A stretch of DNA of 64,000 nucleotides. It comes from an uncultured cyanobacterium. Its GTDB lineage: Bacteria > Cyanobacteriota > Cyanobacteriia > Cyanobacteriales > Cyanobacteriaceae. Of this stretch, positions 1 through 10,285 are shown piece after piece. The position numbers and the translations under genes are program-made. The stretch covers positions 1-64,000 of the forward strand of contig CAVQBA010000001.1 in assembly GCA_963710605.1 (NCBI GenBank). The letters are read 5' to 3'. The notes below the pieces were generated by a model. The model was not told where the DNA came from and made no database searches. It saw nothing but the letters and a program-made list of their open reading frames with translations. Each line of letters starts with the position of its first letter. Position 1 is the stretch's first letter.

Positions 1-93
1 ATCTGATACTAGTAATTTACACAACAATGATTTAAAGCACATTCATATAGTGTATATTTTACATAACAATAATTAACTTCTAAAATTATTCTA

Positions 94-1411
94 TCAGATG
101 TCTTTAAAGTTTCCTACAGATGGGTCAAAATTGACTTTACAAGTACCAGTTGAACCATTTCTATTCTTACCCACAATTATCTCCGTAACCCCTGTATCTT
201 TTGTATTTGAGTTATAGTATTCATCTCGGTAAAGAAGTAAACCTAAGTCCATATCCTGCTCTATATCCCCCGAATCTTTAATATCACCCATAGAAGGGCG
301 TTTATTGCTTTGCCCTTCAACTCCTCGGTTTATTTGGGCTAAAACGATAAAAGGAACATCAAACATTTTAGCGATGTCTTTACACGCTCCTGAATATTTA
401 CCAATAGCTTGAGATCTATTCCTGCACTTCTATCCCCTAATTTTTGGATATAATCTAATACGACTAAACCTATTTCTCCCTTTTCGGGGGCAACTGTATG
501 CCACGTAATACAGAACGCATTTTGGCAGGAGTTAATTGACTTGCAGGAGTATCATCAATAATTATTGGTAGTTGTGACACCTGCTCTAACGAAGATACTA
601 AAAGCTCATATTCTTCTTCATAAATTTGATTGTGTATCAGTCGATGAGAATCAATACCTGTGTGCATTGAAAGAAATCTTTTAGTCAACTGTTCGTGACT
701 CATCTCCGCACTAAAGATTACTACGGTTTGTGTTCTTTGGTACAATATAATTAGCAAAGTAACAACCAAGCCAACTTTTCCCCATAGATGGTATTTTTTT
801 TTAACCACAATCAAATCTTGTTTTATCAAACCGCCAATCAGTTGGTCAAGATTACTCAGTCCAGTAGAATAGGCATTCCTTGCTCCATCGCTAATTTTAC
901 CCAAGACTTCAATTAAACTATCACCAATAGATTTAGGGTCAAATCTACCTGTTTTCTTAGTAGTTATATCAAACAACTTCTGTTCGCTACTATCAAAGAC
1001 TGTTTCTAAATTGGCAGAAGTATCACTGGCTAGTTCAACTATTTCTTGTCCTGTTTGTCGCAATAAACGGCGTTGATACTTATTCATTACTAACTCAACA
1101 TAATGTTGAGCTGTTTTAGATGTTACTGTAGAATCTAATAATTGAGTTAACTTGAGAGTACCACCAACAGAATCTAAAAGATTATGGTCTTGTAACCAAG
1201 TGCTGATAGTAGTTAAATCAGTCGGTTTGTTTTGACGATATATTTCTAGAGCAAATTCATAAATCTTTTGATGAGCAGAAAGGGAAAAAGCATCGGCAGG
1301 AAGCTGTGATGCAATTAAACCGATAATTTTTGGGTCAAATAGAATACTACCAAGAATTTGTTCTTCGGCTTCTATATTTGCTAGGAGCTTATTTTGATTA
1401 ATCGTCTTCAT
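94..1411 (-). pseudogene. dnaB: DnaB-family replicative helicase (element-encoded), split by about four frameshifts; real decay or sequencing error
   Basis: N-terminal NIEAEEQILGSIL. Walker A remnant PSMGKS and VVLDYIQ in shifted frames; FSAEMS; C-terminal LAQINR..RPSMGDIKDSGDIEQDMD..GKNRNG. ORFs 470..1411 and 94..366 join into one protein. Confidence 0.85.
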
Positions 1412-2252
1412 TACGGAATAAGTTACTAAGGGCTTTTAATTTATCGTTGCTAATTAATTTTTGGTCAGAAGGAGTTGATTTACTGACTATTTGTTGATGT
1501 TCGGGTTTGGTAACTTCAGGTGTAGATGATTGGTGATTCCATCCTTCTTTAATCGCTTTGTTTAACCATCCCCCTGCGTTACTAACCTTGGACTGTGCTA
1601 ATTGTTCCTTCAAGGCAGAAATAGCTTCTAATACTTGTTGCTCTTCTGCTTGTTTGATAGTTTTTTTTAAAGTGGGATTAAGTTTAACACCTAATTCTTT
1701 TAGCTCCTTTTCAATTGAAACAGTAGAAGTTTGAGGTGGACTTGTCAAAGGAGGAACTTTAGTCATACGACTAATGGGGATAACTTTTTCTGCTATCTCT
1801 TGTTCTTTAACTTTAGTAAGTAGTCGTTCATTTTCTTTTTGTAATCTTTCTACTTGGTCTTGTAGTTGATAGACTCGATATACTTGTCCTGCAAGAGCTT
1901 CATTCTTTTTCTTTAGTTCTTTGTTTTCATTTTCTACCCGTTTGAGTCGCTCTTGTAACTTCGTGATGATTTTACCTTGGGCGGTAGAATTAGGTTTATT
2001 GAGCGGTTTAACAGGCATAGAATTTTGTTGACTACGAAGTTCTGCCACTCGTTGCTTCAACTCAGGATATTTATATAAATAACTCACACTGACTTGGGCT
2101 TCTCTGGCTACAGTGGCAAAGTTAATCTTGGCATTGATTTTGAGTAACTTTTCTATTGCTTCATGAACACGATTACGGGATTCTTCTTTTCTTTTCTCCT
2201 GAGTGGATTTAAGGGTTTCAATTAGTTGTTCTCTAATATCAAAGTCTGCCAT
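1398..2252 (-). CDS. Tn554 TnpC / DUF6262-like protein with coiled coil and extra C-terminal domain
   Basis: AIEKL..KINFATVAREAQVSVSYLY..ELKQRV HTH-like motif, then a long coiled coil; located after the recombinases. Confidence 0.75.
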   Translation of the reverse strand: MADFDIREQLIETLKSTQEKRKEESRNRVHEAIEKLLKINAKINFATVAREAQVSVSYLYKYPELKQRVAELRSQQNSMPVKPLNKPNSTAQGKIITKLQERLKRVENENKELKKKNEALAGQVYRVYQLQDQVERLQKENERLLTKVKEQEIAEKVIPISRMTKVPPLTSPPQTSTVSIEKELKELGVKLNPTLKKTIKQAEEQQVLEAISALKEQLAQSKVSNAGGWLNKAIKEGWNHQSSTPEVTKPEHQQIVSKSTPSDQKLISNDKLKALSNLFRNEDD

Positions 2253-4237
2253 TATGCTACCTCGTGTTGTAATGACTGAATAATCTTGTTAAGGGTGTCG
2301 GCTTGTCTGCCAAACTGCTCGACTAAAACATTTTGCCCATTGGCATTAGCTGTAGATTGTTTTTTCCTTAGCTCATCTCTAACTTTGATATATTGGTCAA
2401 GTTTATCGGGAGTAGCGACAAAATGATTGCAAGTATAACAAGCTCTGAACTTATGACAATCTTGGTCTAAATCCAGTCCACAATAACCATAAATGGGCGT
2501 GTTAATATGTGTTCCAGAGAGTTCTAACTTATGAGCAGTAGGATTATCCCAGAACGATTTAGGGAAGGATTCATAAGGTACTTGTTTACCTTCTGCATTA
2601 ACTAAGGCTTTTTGAATATGTCCTGCTTCTTTATTAATGAGTTCACAACTAACTTTGGTATAGTAAGTGCTAGTGGTAGCAAAATGTTTATGTCCTGCCC
2701 ATGCACTCACTACCGCTAAATCATGTCCTTGTTCAAAAAGATTAGTTAAGCGAGTAGAACGTAATATTTTGTTTATAAAGGTTGCTAGTTGTCCATTTTC
2801 ATCTCGGATGTCTAAAGTAGTAATTAGAGTTCTTATACTTTTCATTAATGGATGTGAATCATTACTTTGTACAACCTTCTTAACAGGTACTAGATTAGGT
2901 TGAGATGCTTTTGTTGAAGATAGACCGTGATAATGACAGAACAAATAATCATATTCATCCCCCCATAGATTTTTAACATAATCTAGCTGTTCTTGAACAA
3001 CTTTGGCGATAGTTCTACTAATAGGTATTTCATGGTAATCTTTATTTTTTGGTCTGTACCAACGTAGTTTCCAATATTGTCCTTCTTGTATTAAACAATC
3101 CTGTTTGAGTTGAGCTAGTTCAGATGGACGCATTGCTCCAAAATAGCAGATTAGATATATTCGAGCGATGGGGTCTGGTAAAATATGTAAATTGGCTTCT
3201 ATTTGCTCTGTAACTTTTTGTGATAGGGGATCTGGATTGCCTCGGCGACGTTTAGGATAGTCTTCATCTCGAATAATATCTTGGTCAATATCAAACCAAC
3301 CCTTAACTGTACCCACAAAGAAAAAATCTCTTAATGGAGTTAACTTGGATTTAGTAACTTTTTTCTCTTTTGATAGGTAGTCAAGAAAAACTGTACGATT
3401 AATCTGTTCAAAATCACTAATAGCAGTAGTTTGTAAGTAAATAGATAATGAGCGGAAGGCGACTAGAACATGGTTGATTGTTCCAAAAGCCTTTTCTATT
3501 TTGCATAAATGTTCGACATACTGCTTAGCTTTGTCTTTCAACCATTGTTGCTTAATCTGACTGAAGTTAGCGATGGAATGTGTTAAATTTTTTGGGTTGT
3601 AGTTGAGATTAAGGTTTCTCAAATCCCATCGCTCATCTTGCCATTGAAATGGTTTTATATGTCTGTCTTGTTGTGTGAAATAACTTAAATTTACTTGATT
3701 TAACTCAATATAATCGTATTGAGTTTTACGACAACTTCGACAACTAAATGTCTTTTTGTTTTGCTTATTAATTCCTGCAATATACATATCCATTGCATTA
3801 CATTCAGGACAAACAAAGCCTTCTATCCTATGATTCCGATACCAGACCACACCTTTATTCGTTGGGTCTTCAATGGCTTCATAACCACCTTTGATATTGC
3901 ATGAATCCTGCTGTATTTTTTGGCAGTGAGGACATCGAAATTGCCTTTTATTATTGGGTTGCTTAATTCCTCCTACTACCATTCCTAAATGATTACATTC
4001 AGGGCAGATAAACTCACCGTGATAGTCTTGTCCCCAATCAACCTGTTCATCAATCAATCTATCTGTTAAATAACGAGAACGATTGTTCAAATTAATTGAA
4101 GAAACGACTGAACCTCTGCAATTTGAGCATCGAAATTGTTGCTTACCATTATTCAGCCCCCCTAATTTCAAAGGCATTTCATTGCATTTAGGGCAGATAA
4201 ATTCTCCTTGATAGTCTTGTTTCCAATTAATTTCCAT
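2252..4237 (-). CDS. Tyrosine recombinase (Tn554 TnpB-like) with three N-terminal zinc-ribbon repeats
   Basis: GAMRPSE, KILR, AGH..TYY; C-terminal GYC..C..ACYTC motif. The ATG at 4237 overlaps the upstream stop and is a likelier start than 4270. Confidence 0.85.
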   Translation of the reverse strand: MEINWKQDYQGEFICPKCNEMPLKLGGLNNGKQQFRCSNCRGSVVSSINLNNRSRYLTDRLIDEQVDWGQDYHGEFICPECNHLGMVVGGIKQPNNKRQFRCPHCQKIQQDSCNIKGGYEAIEDPTNKGVVWYRNHRIEGFVCPECNAMDMYIAGINKQNKKTFSCRSCRKTQYDYIELNQVNLSYFTQQDRHIKPFQWQDERWDLRNLNLNYNPKNLTHSIANFSQIKQQWLKDKAKQYVEHLCKIEKAFGTINHVLVAFRSLSIYLQTTAISDFEQINRTVFLDYLSKEKKVTKSKLTPLRDFFFVGTVKGWFDIDQDIIRDEDYPKRRRGNPDPLSQKVTEQIEANLHILPDPIARIYLICYFGAMRPSELAQLKQDCLIQEGQYWKLRWYRPKNKDYHEIPISRTIAKVVQEQLDYVKNLWGDEYDYLFCHYHGLSSTKASQPNLVPVKKVVQSNDSHPLMKSIRTLITTLDIRDENGQLATFINKILRSTRLTNLFEQGHDLAVVSAWAGHKHFATTSTYYTKVSCELINKEAGHIQKALVNAEGKQVPYESFPKSFWDNPTAHKLELSGTHINTPIYGYCGLDLDQDCHKFRACYTCNHFVATPDKLDQYIKVRDELRKKQSTANANGQNVLVEQFGRQADTLNKIIQSLQHEVA

Positions 4238-5717
4238 TACTGTTGCCCTCCAACCCTTGAATACGAACAATTAATCTTTCTTTATCATCGGTAAGTCCTT
4301 TACTTTGTCTAACTAAACCCAAATTAGTAGCTATCTCCAATTCCTCATCTATTCTCTGTAAGTCTTGTTTGAGGTAGTTTAGGTCATCCGTGGAAGTGAG
4401 CCAATGTTCACATTGCCAACAAGCATTAACAGTTTGACAGGGTGATTTTAAAACAGGGCGATGACATTCCCCATAGTTCGTCGTTACCTGATACATTTTT
4501 CTTCGCATTAACTCAGTAATAACATTTTTGGGTTTATGTTCTTTTACTATCTTTCCTGTACTGTCAACGTACTTTGTACTCTGCATTAATTCCTGATACT
4601 CTTCTCCCACTACCTCCTTAAGTAAATGTTTGTAGTAGTTCTGCATATCGGGAGAACGGTGACGTAGATACTTTTGAATAATTAAGTCTCTTACTCCTGC
4701 ATTAGTCATTACCGTTGCCACAGTCTTTCTGAATTGGTGAGAACGAAAATGCCAAAGATTTCCTTCTTTTGTACAGATATTTTGTTCCTCTGCCAGTTTA
4801 TTAAGCCAACGACTAAAGCCATCTACTTTCATTATTCTAGGAGCAGGGTTATATTTTCCAAATATACCATCGTTGCTACCGAACAGATTATGATAAGTAT
4901 CACCAAAGTGTTCTCGAATAAAATCTTGTTGTTCTTTAATAACGGCTACAAGTTCTTCACAGATAGGTAATTCATCCTCTGTCTTATACTTTTCTGTCAG
5001 AAATCTCAACCGCCATTCACTCCCTCTCTTACGTAAACAGTCTAAAGGTAAATTCAGTAGTTCTCCTATGCGTAATCCTGTTGCTCGAATGATTAACACC
5101 ATTCTCTGCTTTGGTGAGGGAAGCAAATGCAAGTGTTCATCTAGCTGTTGCCATACTTCTTCGGGGATGTATTCTACTTCGTCATTCTTTGCTTGAGAAC
5201 CATGATACTTACCTTTAAACCAATAAGTATTGACATCCAACCAACCTTCTTGCCGACAAAGGTTAAAGAAGTTGATCAATGTCATATAACGTAAAGAGAT
5301 ACTTCTTTGGGATAAAGGTTTTTTTGTCTGTTTGCTTTTCGTTGAATGTAAGTAGTAATCGTATTCATCTAATAGTTGTTCATTGATATCTTCTACACTA
5401 TAAACAGACTTAGTTTTCAAAAAGATAGAGAACTCCCTCAAAGAAGCAACATCATTCTTTAGATACATTGCCGAATAATTACGTTTAGCCCGAATCAATA
5501 TGTAGAGCTTAGTCAGCAGCTTCAACCAATCTTGTTGAATTTTATCAAATCTAATAGTTAAAACTTTTTGATGTTGATTCACACTTAACCCCAAATCTTC
5601 AATGGTTCGCCAAACATCTTTTTGTAGCAAAGGATTATTTAATAACTCTCTAGCAGACTCATTCTGTTCTACTAACCATAACTCAGGTTGGCTATTCCAA
5701 TCTGGTATTGCATTCAT
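4227..5717 (-). CDS. Tyrosine recombinase (Tn554 TnpB-like)
   Basis: TGLRIGE, HQFR, LRHRSPDMQNYY catalytic set; C-terminal GEC..C..ACWQC motif. Confidence 0.9.
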   Translation of the reverse strand: MNAIPDWNSQPELWLVEQNESARELLNNPLLQKDVWRTIEDLGLSVNQHQKVLTIRFDKIQQDWLKLLTKLYILIRAKRNYSAMYLKNDVASLREFSIFLKTKSVYSVEDINEQLLDEYDYYLHSTKSKQTKKPLSQRSISLRYMTLINFFNLCRQEGWLDVNTYWFKGKYHGSQAKNDEVEYIPEEVWQQLDEHLHLLPSPKQRMVLIIRATGLRIGELLNLPLDCLRKRGSEWRLRFLTEKYKTEDELPICEELVAVIKEQQDFIREHFGDTYHNLFGSNDGIFGKYNPAPRIMKVDGFSRWLNKLAEEQNICTKEGNLWHFRSHQFRKTVATVMTNAGVRDLIIQKYLRHRSPDMQNYYKHLLKEVVGEEYQELMQSTKYVDSTGKIVKEHKPKNVITELMRRKMYQVTTNYGECHRPVLKSPCQTVNACWQCEHWLTSTDDLNYLKQDLQRIDEELEIATNLGLVRQSKGLTDDKERLIVRIQGLEGNSNGN

Positions 5718-6799
5718 TCTTCTTCCTCCTGTTCGATTACTCTTCGTAAGTCTGCTTCTTCAATCACATGAGAATACACATCTAACGTCGTTTGAATACT
5801 GGCGTGTCCTAATAAATATTTGACTCTATCAGGAGAATAACCTGCTTTGAGCAAACGAGTGGCATAAGTATGACGAAATAAATGGGCATAAACCTTGATT
5901 CCCGTTTTTTGGGATAATCGAGTAAACATGACACTCAAAACATCAGGACTGATGGGCTTACCTATTTCTCCTTCCCAAATATTGATAAATACGTACTCTG
6001 ACTCTATTTCAGGATATTCATAAAGCAGATAATCGTTGTACATTTGGATTAGCTCTGGTATGACAGGAATCGTTCGTTCTTGCCCTTTAGCCAAAGCACC
6101 ATTTGGGTTATCTTTTCTTTTTACTACTTTAATGTAGTTTTCTCCAAAATCACTCACATCCTCATGTTTTAGACCTAGTATTTCTCCTTTACGCATTCCC
6201 GTACCATTAAGCATAAGGATAATCAACTTGTCTCTTAAACGATTACAGGCATTGACCAATACTTCTACCTGCTCATCTGTTAAGCATCCTGCAAACTTTT
6301 TCTTGCCTTTGAGCTTAACTAATTTTTGACGAACGGGCTTAGTTTTAGCAATACCTGTGAGTAGTCCTTTACTACTTCTGTTTGTGATGCCATAGGGTAA
6401 ATGAAATCTGTCGAACTGTTTGAAGTCCACAGTCTTGTTGGCAATATGATATTCGTAAAACTGTGTTACCCCCGTAATCATACGATTAACGGTACTTTCA
6501 CTTCTAATGGCTTCTATTCCTTGTAGATTGATGACAGCTTTATCTCCAACTCTGAGCCAGTGAGCATAGTTTTCTAAATCGGAGACATTTACTTCCCTCC
6601 AATCCAAACATTGTTGTTGAAGAAAAAGCCACCAGTATCTTAAATCGTGTCCATAAGATTTGATGGTATTAGGTGATTTGGTTGTAGTCATAAACGTCAA
6701 AAAACGTTGTATTGGTTCGACAATTTGATAGTCCTCATCAAACATCAACCAAACTGGTTCGTTTGTAACGGGATCTATTCCCTTTTGCAAAGACAACAT
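5714..6799 (-). CDS. Tyrosine recombinase (Tn554 TnpA-like)
   Basis: SPNTIKSYGHDL, GMRKGE, HLFRHTYAT, LLGHASIQTTLDVYSH. Confidence 0.9.
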   Translation of the reverse strand: MLSLQKGIDPVTNEPVWLMFDEDYQIVEPIQRFLTFMTTTKSPNTIKSYGHDLRYWWLFLQQQCLDWREVNVSDLENYAHWLRVGDKAVINLQGIEAIRSESTVNRMITGVTQFYEYHIANKTVDFKQFDRFHLPYGITNRSSKGLLTGIAKTKPVRQKLVKLKGKKKFAGCLTDEQVEVLVNACNRLRDKLIILMLNGTGMRKGEILGLKHEDVSDFGENYIKVVKRKDNPNGALAKGQERTIPVIPELIQMYNDYLLYEYPEIESEYVFINIWEGEIGKPISPDVLSVMFTRLSQKTGIKVYAHLFRHTYATRLLKAGYSPDRVKYLLGHASIQTTLDVYSHVIEEADLRRVIEQEEEE

Positions 6800-6904
6800 A
6801 AACTTTACACAATGAAGAAATATATGTATAAGCTTAACATGTTATTAGGTAAAAAAAAGGGGTCTTTGTTGTTGTTGTTTATTATTAAATATTTGTATTG
6901 TATA

Positions 6905-7528
6905 ACCCATATCTAACCCAATCATTTTCTTTGTTTGAGGTAGTTCTGGGGTTATATCTCTTACGTCTAGCTTCAAGCAAAACTGAGAATAATAGCCGTC
7001 GCTTCTCCTAACAATACGGACTCTTTGTATTTGGAATTCTTGGAAATAAAATAAATCTCTCGAACCAATTAACTTTAGAGTACCGATATTGTTACCGTCT
7101 GTGAAGGTTATTCTTTTGTTGTCTCTATCTAACTTCCATCCTGACTTTTTCAACTCGATACTTCGTGTTCGCTTAGAAAACTGAGGATAACCCGCTTGGT
7201 GCGCGTTCCCTTGCGCCTGTCGGCGGCGCGGGGTCGCATCCGCTTTCTTCCCTTTTATGTCTTTTTTACAATTATCATAAAATTTGGCAATTGCCGACCA
7301 TGCTCTTTCTCCAGCTTGTTGACACGCTGTTGAATTTAATTGTTTGACAAAAGAAAACTCTTTTCTCAAATCTGTAGTATGACGATAAATATCTTTTTTG
7401 CCTACTCCTCTTAAGTCCATCCATAAACGAATACATTTATTACGCACGAACTTTACGGTACGAATACCTTCGTCGATTGCTTTAAATTGTTCTGGCTTTC
7501 CTTTTAATTTGTATTCTAATAAAAACAT
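6905..7528 (-). pseudogene. tnpB: IS605-family RNA-guided nuclease TnpB, truncated at RuvC-I (IGLDMG), with a 17-codon in-frame insert
   Basis: EYKLKGK..AIDEGIRT..FVRNKC..LNSTACQ..ERAW..GYPQF..ELKKSGWKL..GTLKLIG..VRIVRRSDGYY..IGLDMG. The following codons (YTIQIFNNKQQQQ...) are non-homologous read-through. Confidence 0.9.
7193..7243 (-). repeat. ~50-bp GC-rich structured dispersed repeat (SDR-like) inserted in frame in tnpB
   Basis: Aligns with the copies at 33396 and 48705; separates KGKK from GYP. Confidence 0.75.
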
Positions 7529-7621
7529 TTTACGCTTTTAACTACCGCATAAAACATTTTACCATACAGTTAGAAAAGTCGTCTTGAAAGACGAGGCTTT
7601 ATACCCAAAAGTTTTGGTAAA

Positions 7622-7924
7622 ATAAGTCAAACGCACGTCTTTCGTAAGCTAGGCAATGCTAATGGTATATCTGCTGGTATTCCTGATAGCTTACGTTGTA
7701 AGTCTTTAGGACACTCTGAAGCGATTAATCGCAAACATTATCAAACGTGGAGTCATCAAACGACTATTGATTTATTTAAAAACGCTAAACGTCAACCTAT
7801 TGATTTACAATCGTCCTTAAAACTAGCTAAAGCACCCGATAGCAACGTCAGTAAAAATCAAGTGTACGAACTTATTGCGAATATCTATCAGATTGATTAC
7901 GACGAGCTTATTAAGCTACTCTAA
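7622..7924 (+). pseudogene. C-terminal ~100 codons of a tyrosine integrase (island integrase), 5' part separated by the IS
   Basis: Manual translation ISQTHVFRKLG..CKSLGHSEAINRKHY..LIKLL* shows H-x-x-R, LGH and catalytic Y; begins directly at the IS TTAC target. Confidence 0.8.
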
Positions 7925-8238
7925 ATTACTTCTGTCAGAAATTAAAGGTGAGGTCGTTATCAATAGCTATAATGATAATAGTTAGTTAAAAATAAAATAT
8001 TAAATTTTAGTCAGCTTGACTTAGAGGTCATCTTTGATGTGTGAGAAATAGCAGAATAAAATTTAATTAAAGCATAATCGCTCTCTATTGTGCCAGTTCA
8101 GAAAGTGTCATATTGTAGGTTGACGTTGTACTTTTTGATTAAGTGTTCTACACTAGAATGAGTAAGTTTTGAGTAATTGCTACTAATTTTAAGTGTTGTA
8201 AGGGATAAAATACCATACGACGCTAGGAGTAGGGGCAA

Positions 8239-8312
8239 CGAGTGCGAAGGGAATCGAACCCCCGACAACCAGAACCGGAATCTGGTGCTCTATCCGACTG
8301 AGCTACGCACCC
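8239..8312 (-). tRNA. trnR-CCG: tRNA-Arg(CCG), CCA not encoded
   Basis: GGGTGCG/CGCACTC acceptor stem, GCTC/GAGC D arm, CCAGA-TTCCGGT-TCTGG anticodon arm, GGTTCGATTCC T arm. Confidence 0.97.
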
Positions 8313-8407
8313 AACTAATTAATAAGATAGCATTGATAATTGACAATTGACAAATAAAAATTGAAAAAAATTGAAAGTTGAAAAGAACTTTTATTGAACT
8401 AAACAAT

Positions 8408-8827
8408 ATGGATCATAATTTATCGTCGGCTATTTCGTTATTAAAAGAATATAGTACTCTCACTCCAAAAAAGGTTGAAACAGAGACACAAATCGAACAA
8501 TTACGATCGGCGGTAAAATTGGTAGTTAGTTTAGCTACTGCTCAAAATTTTGGTATTTGTGCTTCTAATGTATCTGAGGCATCTTCTGCTTTAGTTTCTT
8601 ACTTACAATCTTTAAAATGTGATCTTGAACTTCCTGCCAATATTGCCACTATCACAACTAACAATACTCCTACTTATTTAAAATTTAGTACTCAAAGGAT
8701 GTCTTTTAATATTGAACGTTATGATGGTAACGATCGTGGTGTTTTAATTACTATTTTCAGTGATGATCAAGAAGAAATAGTGGGAACTTATGGTTATTTA
8801 CCGCTAGACTTGTTTGAAGATAAATAG
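8408..8827 (+). CDS. DUF1824-like conserved cyanobacterial protein
   Basis: FGICA..YLKF..Y.G..RGVLI..GTYGYLPLDLF; ATG at 8408 preferred over TTG at 8378. Confidence 0.75.
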   Translation: MDHNLSSAISLLKEYSTLTPKKVETETQIEQLRSAVKLVVSLATAQNFGICASNVSEASSALVSYLQSLKCDLELPANIATITTNNTPTYLKFSTQRMSFNIERYDGNDRGVLITIFSDDQEEIVGTYGYLPLDLFEDK

Positions 8828-8950
8828 ACTGGCTAATTATTGATATTGGTAATAAATTGAATCTGTCTTGAATATTTATTTACTAATATCGATCGTTAAC
8901 TCTAAAATGATTAAAGTGATGATTAAGTCGTGACAAAGTTGAGCTAAAAA

Positions 8951-9121
8951 TTAATTATCATTAAAACACCAGCCAACGAAACCGAGGATGATTACTAATA
9001 AAGTAAGCTGTAGATAGTGATATAACTGCGAGGCAAAACCCAAAATGACAGAAATAATAGTAAAAGTTCCTAATTGATTCAACAAACCAATTAAAATCAC
9101 AAAAGCAAGTAAGTTAATCAT
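8951..9121 (-). CDS. Small hypothetical membrane protein
   Basis: Hydrophobic ORF with GGAGGG upstream of ATG 9121. Confidence 0.5.
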   Translation of the reverse strand: MINLLAFVILIGLLNQLGTFTIISVILGFASQLYHYLQLTLLVIILGFVGWCFNDN

Positions 9122-9394
9122 ATTACCCTCCAAACTGTTATTTATTTGATTATATTGTATTTTTTTGTTAACCACCACACGATCAAGAATATTGGTTCAA
9201 TGATAAATTGCAAGAAGAAGAAAAACTGAGTTAAGGCTCAAAAGTCAAACATTTTAATAGCTAATGAGTGGTAAGTATATTTCATTATTCATTATTGTTT
9301 GTGGTTTTCCGTATCCTCCATTGCTACTCAAATCTATAATCAACTATTTTATAATTGTTAATATAACTTAACAAAAACAAGATAAAATCAAACG

Positions 9395-10285
9395 ATGACA
9401 GTAAGTATAGATTCTATTCATAACGTAGTTGCGATCGAAGGTCACTATTGGCAATGGCGTGGAGAAAAAGTTTATTATGTTGAGGCGGGAGCAAAAAATA
9501 ATGACAAACCTGCTTTGTTATTAGTACATGGTTTTGGTGCTTCAACTGATCATTGGCGTAAAAATATTCATCAATTACAAAATGAATTTAATGTCTGGGC
9601 GATCGATTTATTAGGCTTTGGACGATCGGCAAAACCTGCGGGGGAATATAGTGGCAAACTATGGCAAGAACAATTAAACGATTTCATTACCGAGGTGATT
9701 CAACAACGTACTGTAGTAGCTGGTAATTCTTTAGGTGGATATGCTTGTTTATGTGCAGGGGCGAATTATCCTGATAATGTAGCCGGGGTAATTTTATTAA
9801 ACAGTGCAGGGCAGTTTTCTGATACAACAGTTGAAGAACCAAATTTGTTTCAAAAAGTCAGTGGCTGGACAATGCAAAGACGTATTGTCACTTATTTTCT
9901 GTTTAATAGATTACGTAACAAAAAAAATATTCGTAGTACTTTAGAAAAAGTATATTTAGATCCAACTACGATTACAGATCAATTAGTAGATGACATATAT
10001 CGTCCTTCTTGTGATAAAGGTGCATTAGAGGTATTTGGTTCGGTATTTAAAAGTCCTCAAGGAGAAAAAGTTGATGAGTTACTAGCTAAACTTAAAGTAC
10101 CTTTACTTAATATTTGGGGTGAATCAGATCCTTGGATACGTTGCCAAGAAAGAAGTTTAAAGTTTGAGCAGTATTATCCTAGCATTGAACAAACTTATGT
10201 CAAAGCTGGTCATTGTCCTCATGATGAAGTACCAGAAGAAGTTAATCGTACTATCAGCGATTGGATGAACAAAATTAATCTATAA
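9395..10285 (+). CDS. Alpha/beta fold hydrolase
   Basis: LLVHGFGAS, DLLGFGRS, GNSLGG nucleophile, AGHCPHDE. Confidence 0.92.
   Translation: MTVSIDSIHNVVAIEGHYWQWRGEKVYYVEAGAKNNDKPALLLVHGFGASTDHWRKNIHQLQNEFNVWAIDLLGFGRSAKPAGEYSGKLWQEQLNDFITEVIQQRTVVAGNSLGGYACLCAGANYPDNVAGVILLNSAGQFSDTTVEEPNLFQKVSGWTMQRRIVTYFLFNRLRNKKNIRSTLEKVYLDPTTITDQLVDDIYRPSCDKGALEVFGSVFKSPQGEKVDELLAKLKVPLLNIWGESDPWIRCQERSLKFEQYYPSIEQTYVKAGHCPHDEVPEEVNRTISDWMNKINL

Follow-up and report, generated by a model that had tools for sequence, protein, structure and literature searches.

The window analysed here, a stretch of 64,000 nucleotides from contig CAVQBA010000001.1 of an uncultured cyanobacterium of the Cyanobacteriaceae (assembly GCA_963710605.1), opens with a mobile element of ∼6.9 kb (positions 1 to 6913, minus strand) that contains three tyrosine recombinase genes, a tnpC-like gene and a dnaB gene. 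All of these genes lie on the minus strand in an operon-like row, with neighbours overlapping. The first encodes a recombinase of 361 amino acids in the TnpA/IntA position (5714 to 6799; Phage_integrase, E 5e-30, with a SAM-like N-terminal domain), followed by a middle recombinase of 496 amino acids (4227 to 5717; Phage_integrase, E 2e-18) and a large recombinase of 672 amino acids in the TnpB/IntB position, which carries N-terminal zinc ribbons (2252 to 4270; Phage_integrase, E 4e-14, and several zinc-ribbon families). Together with the intact tnpC-like gene (1398 to 2252), whose 284-amino-acid product aligns with its relatives from end to end, these recombinases make up the gene set of Tn554-like, SE and GInt elements. 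The row ends with a dnaB pseudogene (94 to 1411), recognized from Pfam and NCBIfam matches to two fragments, in which the N- and C-terminal DnaB domains are both present and the reading frame is disrupted at several places.

The window begins at a contig end, and the limits of the element were taken from a second copy in the same genome, which is split across two other contig ends. Positions 1-3410 of one contig (C2) were 98.3% identical to window positions 1-3414, and positions 328357-332074 of another (C5) were 99.8% identical to window positions 3195-6913. Because the similarity stops at 6913 on one side and exactly at the first base of the window on the other, where C2 runs into unrelated DNA, the element measures ∼6.9 kb, with 93 bp between the dnaB stop and its edge. 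Its presence in two copies with sharp limits matches the multicopy, mobile character and the defined ends of Tn554-like, SE and GInt elements. In other genomes, too, related elements are present in several identical copies, as in the Calothrix record of loci L084 and L087.

The TnpC-like protein (P0001) is read from an ATG at 2252, which abuts the end of the gene for the 672-amino-acid recombinase, to 1398 on the minus strand, and the order of recombinase followed by tnpC was the same in 33 related loci wherever upstream DNA was present. Residues 13-120 (1893 to 2216), comprising a helix-turn-helix (HTH) and the start of a coiled coil, matched the Pfam family DUF6262 (PF19776) with 48.7 bits, above the gathering cut-off of 29 (E 1e-12). 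The label 'DUF6262 family protein (TnpC)' is the one used for Tn6188 in Table 1 of a Listeria paper (PMC11947258). Homologues showed weak matches to HTH_24 around residues ∼41-76 (E 2.5e-4 in P0026 and 3e-5 in P0143), and a putative coiled coil in TnpC is suggested by the sequence itself, together with weak hits to families of coiled-coil proteins. Residues 40-135 and their counterparts in relatives also resembled the NCBIfam family VPA1267_fam, with weak matches (E 3.4e-6 at best) in 28 of the 117 proteins; this family is a small protein of another recombinase-trio system, and the matches hint at kinship.

The N-terminal part is followed by a P/S/T linker (K165-S178 in the translation) and a helical region. 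Window positions 1398-1725, the subject of an initial annotation made from the letters alone, correspond to residues ∼177-284, and the strings ELKELGVKLN, VLEAI and VSNAGGWLNKAIKEGW that it quoted are all present in the translation. The TAA stop of tnpC (1400 to 1398) and the ATG of dnaB (1411 to 1409) define an overlap of 14 nucleotides (1398 to 1411), and a dnaB start at 1411 is consistent with the N-termini of intact relatives. The picture drawn there, of a 284-amino-acid TnpC-like protein that continues through a linker into a helical C-terminal domain and whose stop overlaps the start of dnaB, was borne out by the open reading frame (ORF), the DUF6262 match, the quoted strings, the coordinates and the conserved four-helix domain described below.

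We then examined the C-terminal region, or tail (residues 179-241; 1530 to 1718), in which N225, G228-I234, E236 and W238 were invariant among the four closest relatives. A profile of 63 columns built from four close relatives was searched against 1.84 billion representative proteins and matched 201 of them at E<=1e-3 and 77 at E<=1e-10; one match, to a tetratricopeptide repeat protein (P0121), was rejected as a false positive. When the first 72 matches were scanned with Pfam, DUF6262 preceded the tail in 38, and 31 of the remaining 34 were fragments shorter than 240 amino acids. An AlphaFold2 model of residues 172-284 contained helices at 176-186, 193-201, 204-219 and 226-236 (mean predicted local distance difference test score, pLDDT, of 72), as well as a further helix at 269-278, and the same four helices were predicted for a relative with more sequences at block-mean pLDDT values of 90-96. 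The tail is a discrete conserved helical domain, far beyond chance.

Profile searches also placed this domain outside transposons. It was found near the C-termini of three proteins of 811-856 amino acids, P0068, P0103 and P0131 (E 7.7e-12, 1.4e-8 and 1.9e-6), covering profile positions 5-62 in the first and 5-61 in the other two, and in a protein of 480 amino acids (P0140, E 4.4e-6). The N-termini of these four proteins had no Pfam match, while P0103 gave a weak match to the PrimPol model (E 0.004) and nothing meaningful against PDB sequences. Residues 1-340 of P0068 lay near the AEP-TOTE, PriCT_1, RepB_primase and Replicase clusters in the Atlas (AEP, archaeo-eukaryotic primase) with scores of 0.92-0.96, and 7 of the 10 best matches having a family shared one family or clan. 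Relatives of P0068 occurred on 81 plasmid records, with all genera in the listed tally being cyanobacterial, and among these relatives were one on the Synechocystis 6803 plasmid pSYSG and one in T. variabilis that bears the annotation 'replication-related protein'. In the available text of a 2024 paper, the Rep of pSYSG is stated to be unknown (PMC10899382). A tblastn search of plasmid records with the tail returned five matches, three annotated as DUF6262 family proteins and two as hypothetical proteins, and the same search of a phage collection gave no match at E<=1. As judged from these alignments, the tail is common to TnpC and plasmid-borne proteins of AEP-primase type. The initial annotation had placed such motifs in both plasmid and phage replication proteins; the plasmid half of that statement holds for this lineage, in P0068, P0103, P0131 and P0140, and the phage half found no support in the tblastn search.

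Resemblance of the tail to known initiator domains was followed at the level of structure and profile. In a search of 48,161 chains, the DnaD-domain protein 2i5u (chain A) ranked fifth with the first model (Z 5.1, root-mean-square deviation 2.4, 56 amino acids) and fourth with an independent second model (Z 5.4, root-mean-square deviation 2.4, 57 amino acids), with scores tied with those of unrelated AAA+ lid domains and designed bundles; neither model had a match above the helical-bundle background in this search, and Foldseek against PDB returned nothing at E<=0.001 for either. The Atlas gave L_lactis_RepB_C (0.80) and Bac_RepA_C (0.77), both below the trusted level. With hhalign, the part of the tail that runs from its third helix through the loop to its fourth aligned to the C-terminal domain of pSK41 RepA (P 0.01, probability 1-4%), and a 52-sequence alignment of that domain gave a probability of 4% (P 0.01), which is not significant. 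At E<=10, Pfam returned only sub-threshold noise (SBDS_domain_II; Rep_1, E 0.05-0.06; Ku_PK_bind; DUF2508), the single tail sequence had no match among PDB sequences, and tail profiles against PDB produced only weak hits or repeat-protein false positives (pentatricopeptide repeat and armadillo designs). The island replication protein family STY4528_fam (NF040582) matched weakly in 10 of 117 tail-bearing proteins (best E 3.7e-4, far below the family cut-off), and had no match in the genome of the window. The similarity to DnaD-like or initiator domains that had been anticipated thus stayed below significance (Z 5.1-5.4; hhalign P 0.01; no Foldseek match at E<=0.001).

The genomic neighbourhood of the tail was next compared across relatives. 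A search with the four-row alignment yielded 33 loci, all in cyanobacterial records but for one bin labelled Verrucomicrobiae, and these fell into two classes. In class 1 (24 loci), TnpC has 276-297 amino acids; its N-terminal part is followed by the tail, from which a linker leads to a terminal L-x-x-L-S-x-I-F-type motif. These loci have either two or three recombinase genes upstream, and dnaB starts within the end of tnpC in 23 of the 24, the remaining one stopping at a contig edge. In class 2 (9 loci, five of them from one genome), TnpC has 309-337 amino acids and the tail is followed by a domain beginning F-x-x-W. The exceptional bin, labelled as an uncultured Verrucomicrobiae metagenome-assembled genome, holds a complete class-1 element of cyanobacterial type on a 225-kb contig (L015), which represents either a binning error or transfer beyond cyanobacteria.

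The second domain of class-2 TnpCs (L029:8986-9387) was modelled as a long helix starting with F-x-x-W, three strands and two helices (pLDDT >90); it had no Pfam family and no clear structural neighbour, the wide structure search having barely covered this part of the module. This F-x-x-W domain is also common to class-2 TnpCs and the AEP-type plasmid proteins.

A reverse search from the element dnaB gave 80 loci, four of them without upstream DNA. In 75 of the other 76, a tail-bearing tnpC lay upstream on the same strand, adjacent or overlapping in 71 and at a distance of 1.2-1.3 kb in four; one locus (L105) lacked it. These loci overlap with those of the tail search and include repeated copies, so that they are not independent, and they contain 68 distinct TnpC C-termini. 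The coupling of tnpC to dnaB noted at the single locus is conserved among these element-type dnaB loci.

The C-terminal end of TnpC follows dnaB more closely than the tail does. The terminal motif KLISNDKLKALSNLF (residues 265-279; 1416 to 1460) coincides with the predicted helix at 269-278, for which block-mean pLDDT values were 70 and 82 over residues 91-110 of the model, and such a motif was present in 64 of the 68 distinct dnaB-linked C-termini and in none of the seven distinct unlinked ones. The dnaB-specific feature is this terminal helix and not the four-helix tail. Conservation of the motif as a mere by-product of the overlapping dnaB start was ruled out, because the motif is kept in a locus (L058) where the gene that overlaps the tnpC end encodes a C5 cytosine methylase and not DnaB. 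In that locus, the methylase gene (L058:4704-5981; PF00145, E 4e-65) lies between tnpC and dnaB and overlaps both; L059 and L061 probably carry the same insertion.

In a quick tree of TnpC proteins the two classes were interleaved, and well-supported branches forced at least 13-18 switches between them. Four loci fall into one clade by DnaB and have the same variant of the terminal motif; for these, an approximately unbiased test rejected a single clade on the TnpC body (p 0.019), the group having been picked after the trees were seen. This suggests that the terminal motif and dnaB travel jointly as a module relative to the TnpC body, although plain adjacency would yield the same pattern.

We then turned to the helicase itself. 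The dnaB of the window is found in two pieces (1411 to 470 and 366 to 94), in which the N-terminal domain (PF00772, E 2.5e-26) and the RecA-type C-terminal domain (PF03796, on both fragments) are present; the C-terminal fragment also matched the model for the SPI-7-type DnaB (E 2.6e-31). Its Walker A/P-loop region is garbled by small indels, with frame changes near amino acids 303 and 327, and indels relative to the second copy lie at window positions 418, 485, 724, 742, 770, 792 and 946. The dnaB of the second copy changes frame near amino acid 151, so that the two copies are broken by different small indels, and tnpC, intact in the window, is frameshifted in the second copy. Judged by these frames as assembled, the system is decaying in this genome, with dnaB broken in both copies and tnpC in the second.

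Elsewhere, the element DnaBs of relatives are intact. Measured against the sequence that heads the alignment, their identity is 69-87%, and the helicase motifs, Walker A and Walker B among them, are invariant. Genomes with class-1 elements hold two dnaB genes, one of the element (713-779 bits) and one of the host (499-512 bits), and a FastTree phylogeny set four host DnaBs apart from the 68 DnaBs of elements, the branch between them having 100% support. The element DnaB is a lineage apart from the host DnaB. The host dnaB of the window's genome (C1:155458-159505) aligned to the element copy in three separated blocks with 45%, 43% and 53% identity, as expected of an intein-interrupted gene.

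Comparison of copies within genomes defined elements of 5.4 and 6.7 kb that end ∼125 bp past dnaB, and dnaB was the sole gene beyond the recombinases and tnpC in the multicopy elements of 5.4-6.9 kb. It is a core gene and not passing cargo. Two other forms were seen in these comparisons. An 8.9-kb form in Waterburya records has one extra ORF after dnaB (L006:10761-12806; 681 amino acids), with a weak match to GHKL ATPases (HATPase_c_3, E 8e-5). A class-2 element of 4.0 kb consists of two recombinases and tnpC only; at least five near-identical copies are present in a Calothrix sp. PCC 7716 record (L029-L033, ∼5520-9500), where this minimal element behaves as a tyrosine-recombinase-driven insertion sequence would.

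We propose that P0001 is a TnpC-type accessory protein of a Tn554-like tyrosine-recombinase transposon, belonging to a cyanobacterial branch that has its own DnaB-family helicase as a core gene, and that the C-terminal half of the protein ties the element to replication; we put the probability of this reading at about 45%. The N-terminal HTH and coiled-coil half (DUF6262) would be the recombination-accessory part known from Tn554, joined by a flexible linker to the four-helix domain. Through its C-terminal half, TnpC would couple DNA replication to the recombination complex or to the element once excised. The four-helix domain may be a general domain of replication modules that contacts the replisome or DNA, both in elements that encode a helicase and in those that do not, and the short terminal amphipathic helix may serve specifically to hold the DnaB that the element encodes. 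Overlap of the genes would allow TnpC and DnaB to be made in a fixed ratio; the two proteins would bind each other, the element would serve as the site of helicase loading, and the transposition intermediate would then be copied, making transposition replicative. This reading builds on the domain architecture, the homology to plasmid proteins, the gene coupling, the co-occurrence of terminal motif and dnaB and the separate DnaB lineage, and weak but recurrent leads to initiator C-terminal domains also speak for it. The adaptor role for TnpC suggested in the initial annotation is plausible but unproven.

Several observations weigh against this reading. The tail is not specific to the helicase, since no dnaB was present in the available flanks of any of the nine class-2 loci, and three class-2-only genomes that were searched contained the host dnaB only. 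An even sample of 200 cyanobacterial genomes contained DUF6262 in seven besides the window's own, and the tail was present in all seven full-length TnpC ORFs, two of class 1 with an adjacent dnaB and five of class 2. Class 2 also outnumbered class 1 among representatives: 153 collected proteins comprised 78 of class 2 and 25 of class 1 (∼8 more were assigned to class 1 by eye), with 28 cut off after the tail and one false positive. As a helicase-linked feature the tail does not stand, being present without dnaB in 9/9 class-2 loci and in 5/7 sampled full-length TnpCs, a pattern that had been named in advance as speaking against such a link; co-occurrence with dnaB holds when viewed from dnaB (75/76) and fails when viewed from the tail, as two of the seven sampled full-length TnpCs adjoin dnaB. 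The joint occurrence of the terminal motif and dnaB could equally follow from the physical linkage of neighbouring DNA. Searches of the tail against Pfam, NCBIfam and PDB sequences gave nothing significant, its kinship with DnaD or RepA C-terminal domains is a weak lead only, with scores within reach of the common four-helix arrangement, and the AEP-type plasmid proteins are putative initiators.

A bolder form of the proposal is that these elements are self-contained replicative transposons. TnpC would then act as both initiator and helicase loader, its HTH and coiled coil sitting on the recombination complex while the C-terminal module and terminal helix load the element's DnaB onto the strand-exchanged intermediate, and the element would be copied out rather than cut out. 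We regard this as doubtful. If true, the four-helix domain would be a new helicase- or replisome-recruitment domain that these elements have in common with cyanobacterial plasmid initiators.

The presence of the tail with or without dnaB also fits a different function, that of a DNA-binding module for the element end, an origin or single-stranded DNA. The tail would then not be an adaptor between proteins, and any contact with DnaB would be left to the terminal helix. AEP-type proteins, in which the tail occurs as well, often hold origin-binding domains in their C-terminal regions, and in class-2 and AEP-type proteins the models predict that a helix, three strands and further helices come after the tail, an arrangement that could be winged-helix-like. 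Among the closest natural folds are domains that bind nucleic acids (SYNCRIP NURR, Z 7.0; DnaD domain, Z 5.4), and DnaD C-terminal domains bind DNA. Such Z-scores, however, are no higher than helical bundles reach by chance; the searches gave no significant match to a DNA-binding family, and TnpC already has an HTH at its N-terminus. We consider this explanation unlikely.

It is improbable that the role of the C-terminal half is confined to recombination, where it would mediate oligomerisation or touch the recombinases, and that dnaB is a passenger, selfish or beneficial, joined to tnpC by no more than operon organisation. TnpC, Srap and GinD are indeed known as recombination accessory factors in the available text of the SE and GInt papers (PMC10214605, PMC5385486), the tail is universal in the sampled cyanobacterial TnpCs whether dnaB is present or not, and here both dnaB copies are broken although the element has multiplied. 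Against this, the tail also occurs in AEP-type plasmid proteins outside any recombinase context, a dedicated terminal motif is found only with dnaB, and dnaB is the sole extra gene of the 5.4-6.9-kb elements and forms an old, conserved, element-specific lineage. Very improbable, finally, is a scenario in which the transposon has recruited its DnaB-family protein as a ring ATPase for target capture or regulation (compare TnsC, MuB and IstB), with TnpC as the adaptor between this ATPase and the recombinases and no replication: transposons often pair a recombinase with an oligomeric ATPase, and the gene coupling and terminal motif would fit any partnership of TnpC and DnaB, but the element DnaBs retain the full architecture of a replicative helicase, with the N-terminal domain and all motifs, and the other home of the tail is in replication-type proteins.

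The two copies of the element and its surroundings provided further observations. The recombinase half was 99.8% identical between the copies and the tnpC-dnaB half 98.3%, with 12 small indels and one alignment-end gap concentrated in the latter; either the helicase half is decaying faster or the recombinase half has been homogenised. A comparison of the two ends of the element found no inverted 8-mer common to both, and a single junction, the other end being a contig edge, could be compared between the copies for the 6-7-bp core target of such elements. A separate repeat family (6896 to 7620), with copies on contig C6, abuts the end of the element and has ∼18 bases in common with it, and its ORF of 227 amino acids (6845 to 7528) had no Pfam match at E<=0.01. 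The element appears to be inserted beside or into this repeat. By eye, and from the translations only, all three recombinases (2252 to 6799) appear to keep the catalytic-type Arg, His/Lys-x-x-Arg, His and Tyr; the 496-amino-acid middle recombinase spans positions 5-170 of the 172 in the Phage_integrase profile and keeps Arg, His-x-x-Arg and Tyr by the same inspection.

Comparison with known systems places the element close to the Tn554 family. As in Tn554 and Tn6188, the N-terminal part of TnpC is a DUF6262 domain and its gene directly follows those of tyrosine recombinases, and sister elements with exactly two recombinases and tnpC have the composition of the Tn554 family. The TnpC of that family is a small single-domain protein of ∼125 amino acids, whereas P0001 has 284 and adds a linker, the four-helix domain and the terminal helix; the window element also differs in having three recombinases and a tnpC coupled to a helicase gene. 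With SE and GInt elements it shares a coiled-coil accessory factor encoded by the fourth gene after three genes of tyrosine-recombinase fold, and the authors of the SE and GInt papers, in the text available, call TnpC the counterpart of Srap and GinD (PMC10214605, PMC5385486). The middle protein of those systems, Tfp in SE and GinC in GInt, is described as lacking catalytic residues (PMC10214605), unlike the recombinases of the window as judged by eye. The elements of these papers come from Gamma- and Betaproteobacteria (PMC10214605, PMC5385486), and the hosts given by the SE authors in the available text also include Staphylococcus and Enterococcus (PMC10214605), while the window element is cyanobacterial; the words 'DnaB' and 'cyanobacteri' are absent from the main text of both papers. 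The SE authors do discuss there a replicative 'copy-out' route, which requires replication of the strand-exchanged intermediate, and they name no replication factor for it (PMC10214605).

Three groups of replication proteins offer partial parallels. Like theta-plasmid initiators (pSK41 RepA, Bac_RepA_C) and DnaD-like domain proteins, TnpC has a small helical bundle after its DNA-binding part, and a loop-helix motif, V-x-N-x-x-G-aromatic-L, is similar in the tail and in the C-terminal domain of pSK41 RepA. The latter is DnaD-like and recruits replisome proteins; the similarity of the tail to it is not significant (hhalign 1-4%, P 0.01; Z 5.1-5.4; no Pfam match). The AEP-type proteins of cyanobacterial plasmids (pSYSG and plasmids of Nostoc and Crocosphaera) contain the same four-helix domain (E 7.7e-12 to 1.9e-6), but have an AEP primase-like N-terminus in place of the HTH of TnpC, are not accompanied by recombinases and are putative replication proteins. 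In the initiator-helicase modules of phages and islands, such as the STY4528 protein and island DnaB of SPI-7-type islands, a gene for a DNA-binding organiser likewise adjoins a dedicated DnaB-family helicase; the window module differs in lying within a tyrosine-recombinase transposon of 5-7 kb and in having no loader gene.

Full-text literature searches, which were not exhaustively followed, found no description of a DnaB-carrying tyrosine-recombinase transposon in cyanobacteria. What is new here is a helicase-carrying, initiator-tailed branch of Tn554-like transposons, of which the copy in the window is a decaying example. The finding points to an uncharacterised domain common to transposon and plasmid proteins of cyanobacteria, and is of relevance to cyanobacterial plasmid biology, a field in which the search for the Rep proteins of large plasmids is still under way (PMC10899382). 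The mode of transposition of Tn554-like, SE and GInt elements is not settled; a dedicated helicase together with a tnpC that carries a module of plasmid-initiator type gives a concrete and testable handle on the part played by replication, with the hint that the helicase-carrying elements use replication machinery of their own to make copies of themselves.

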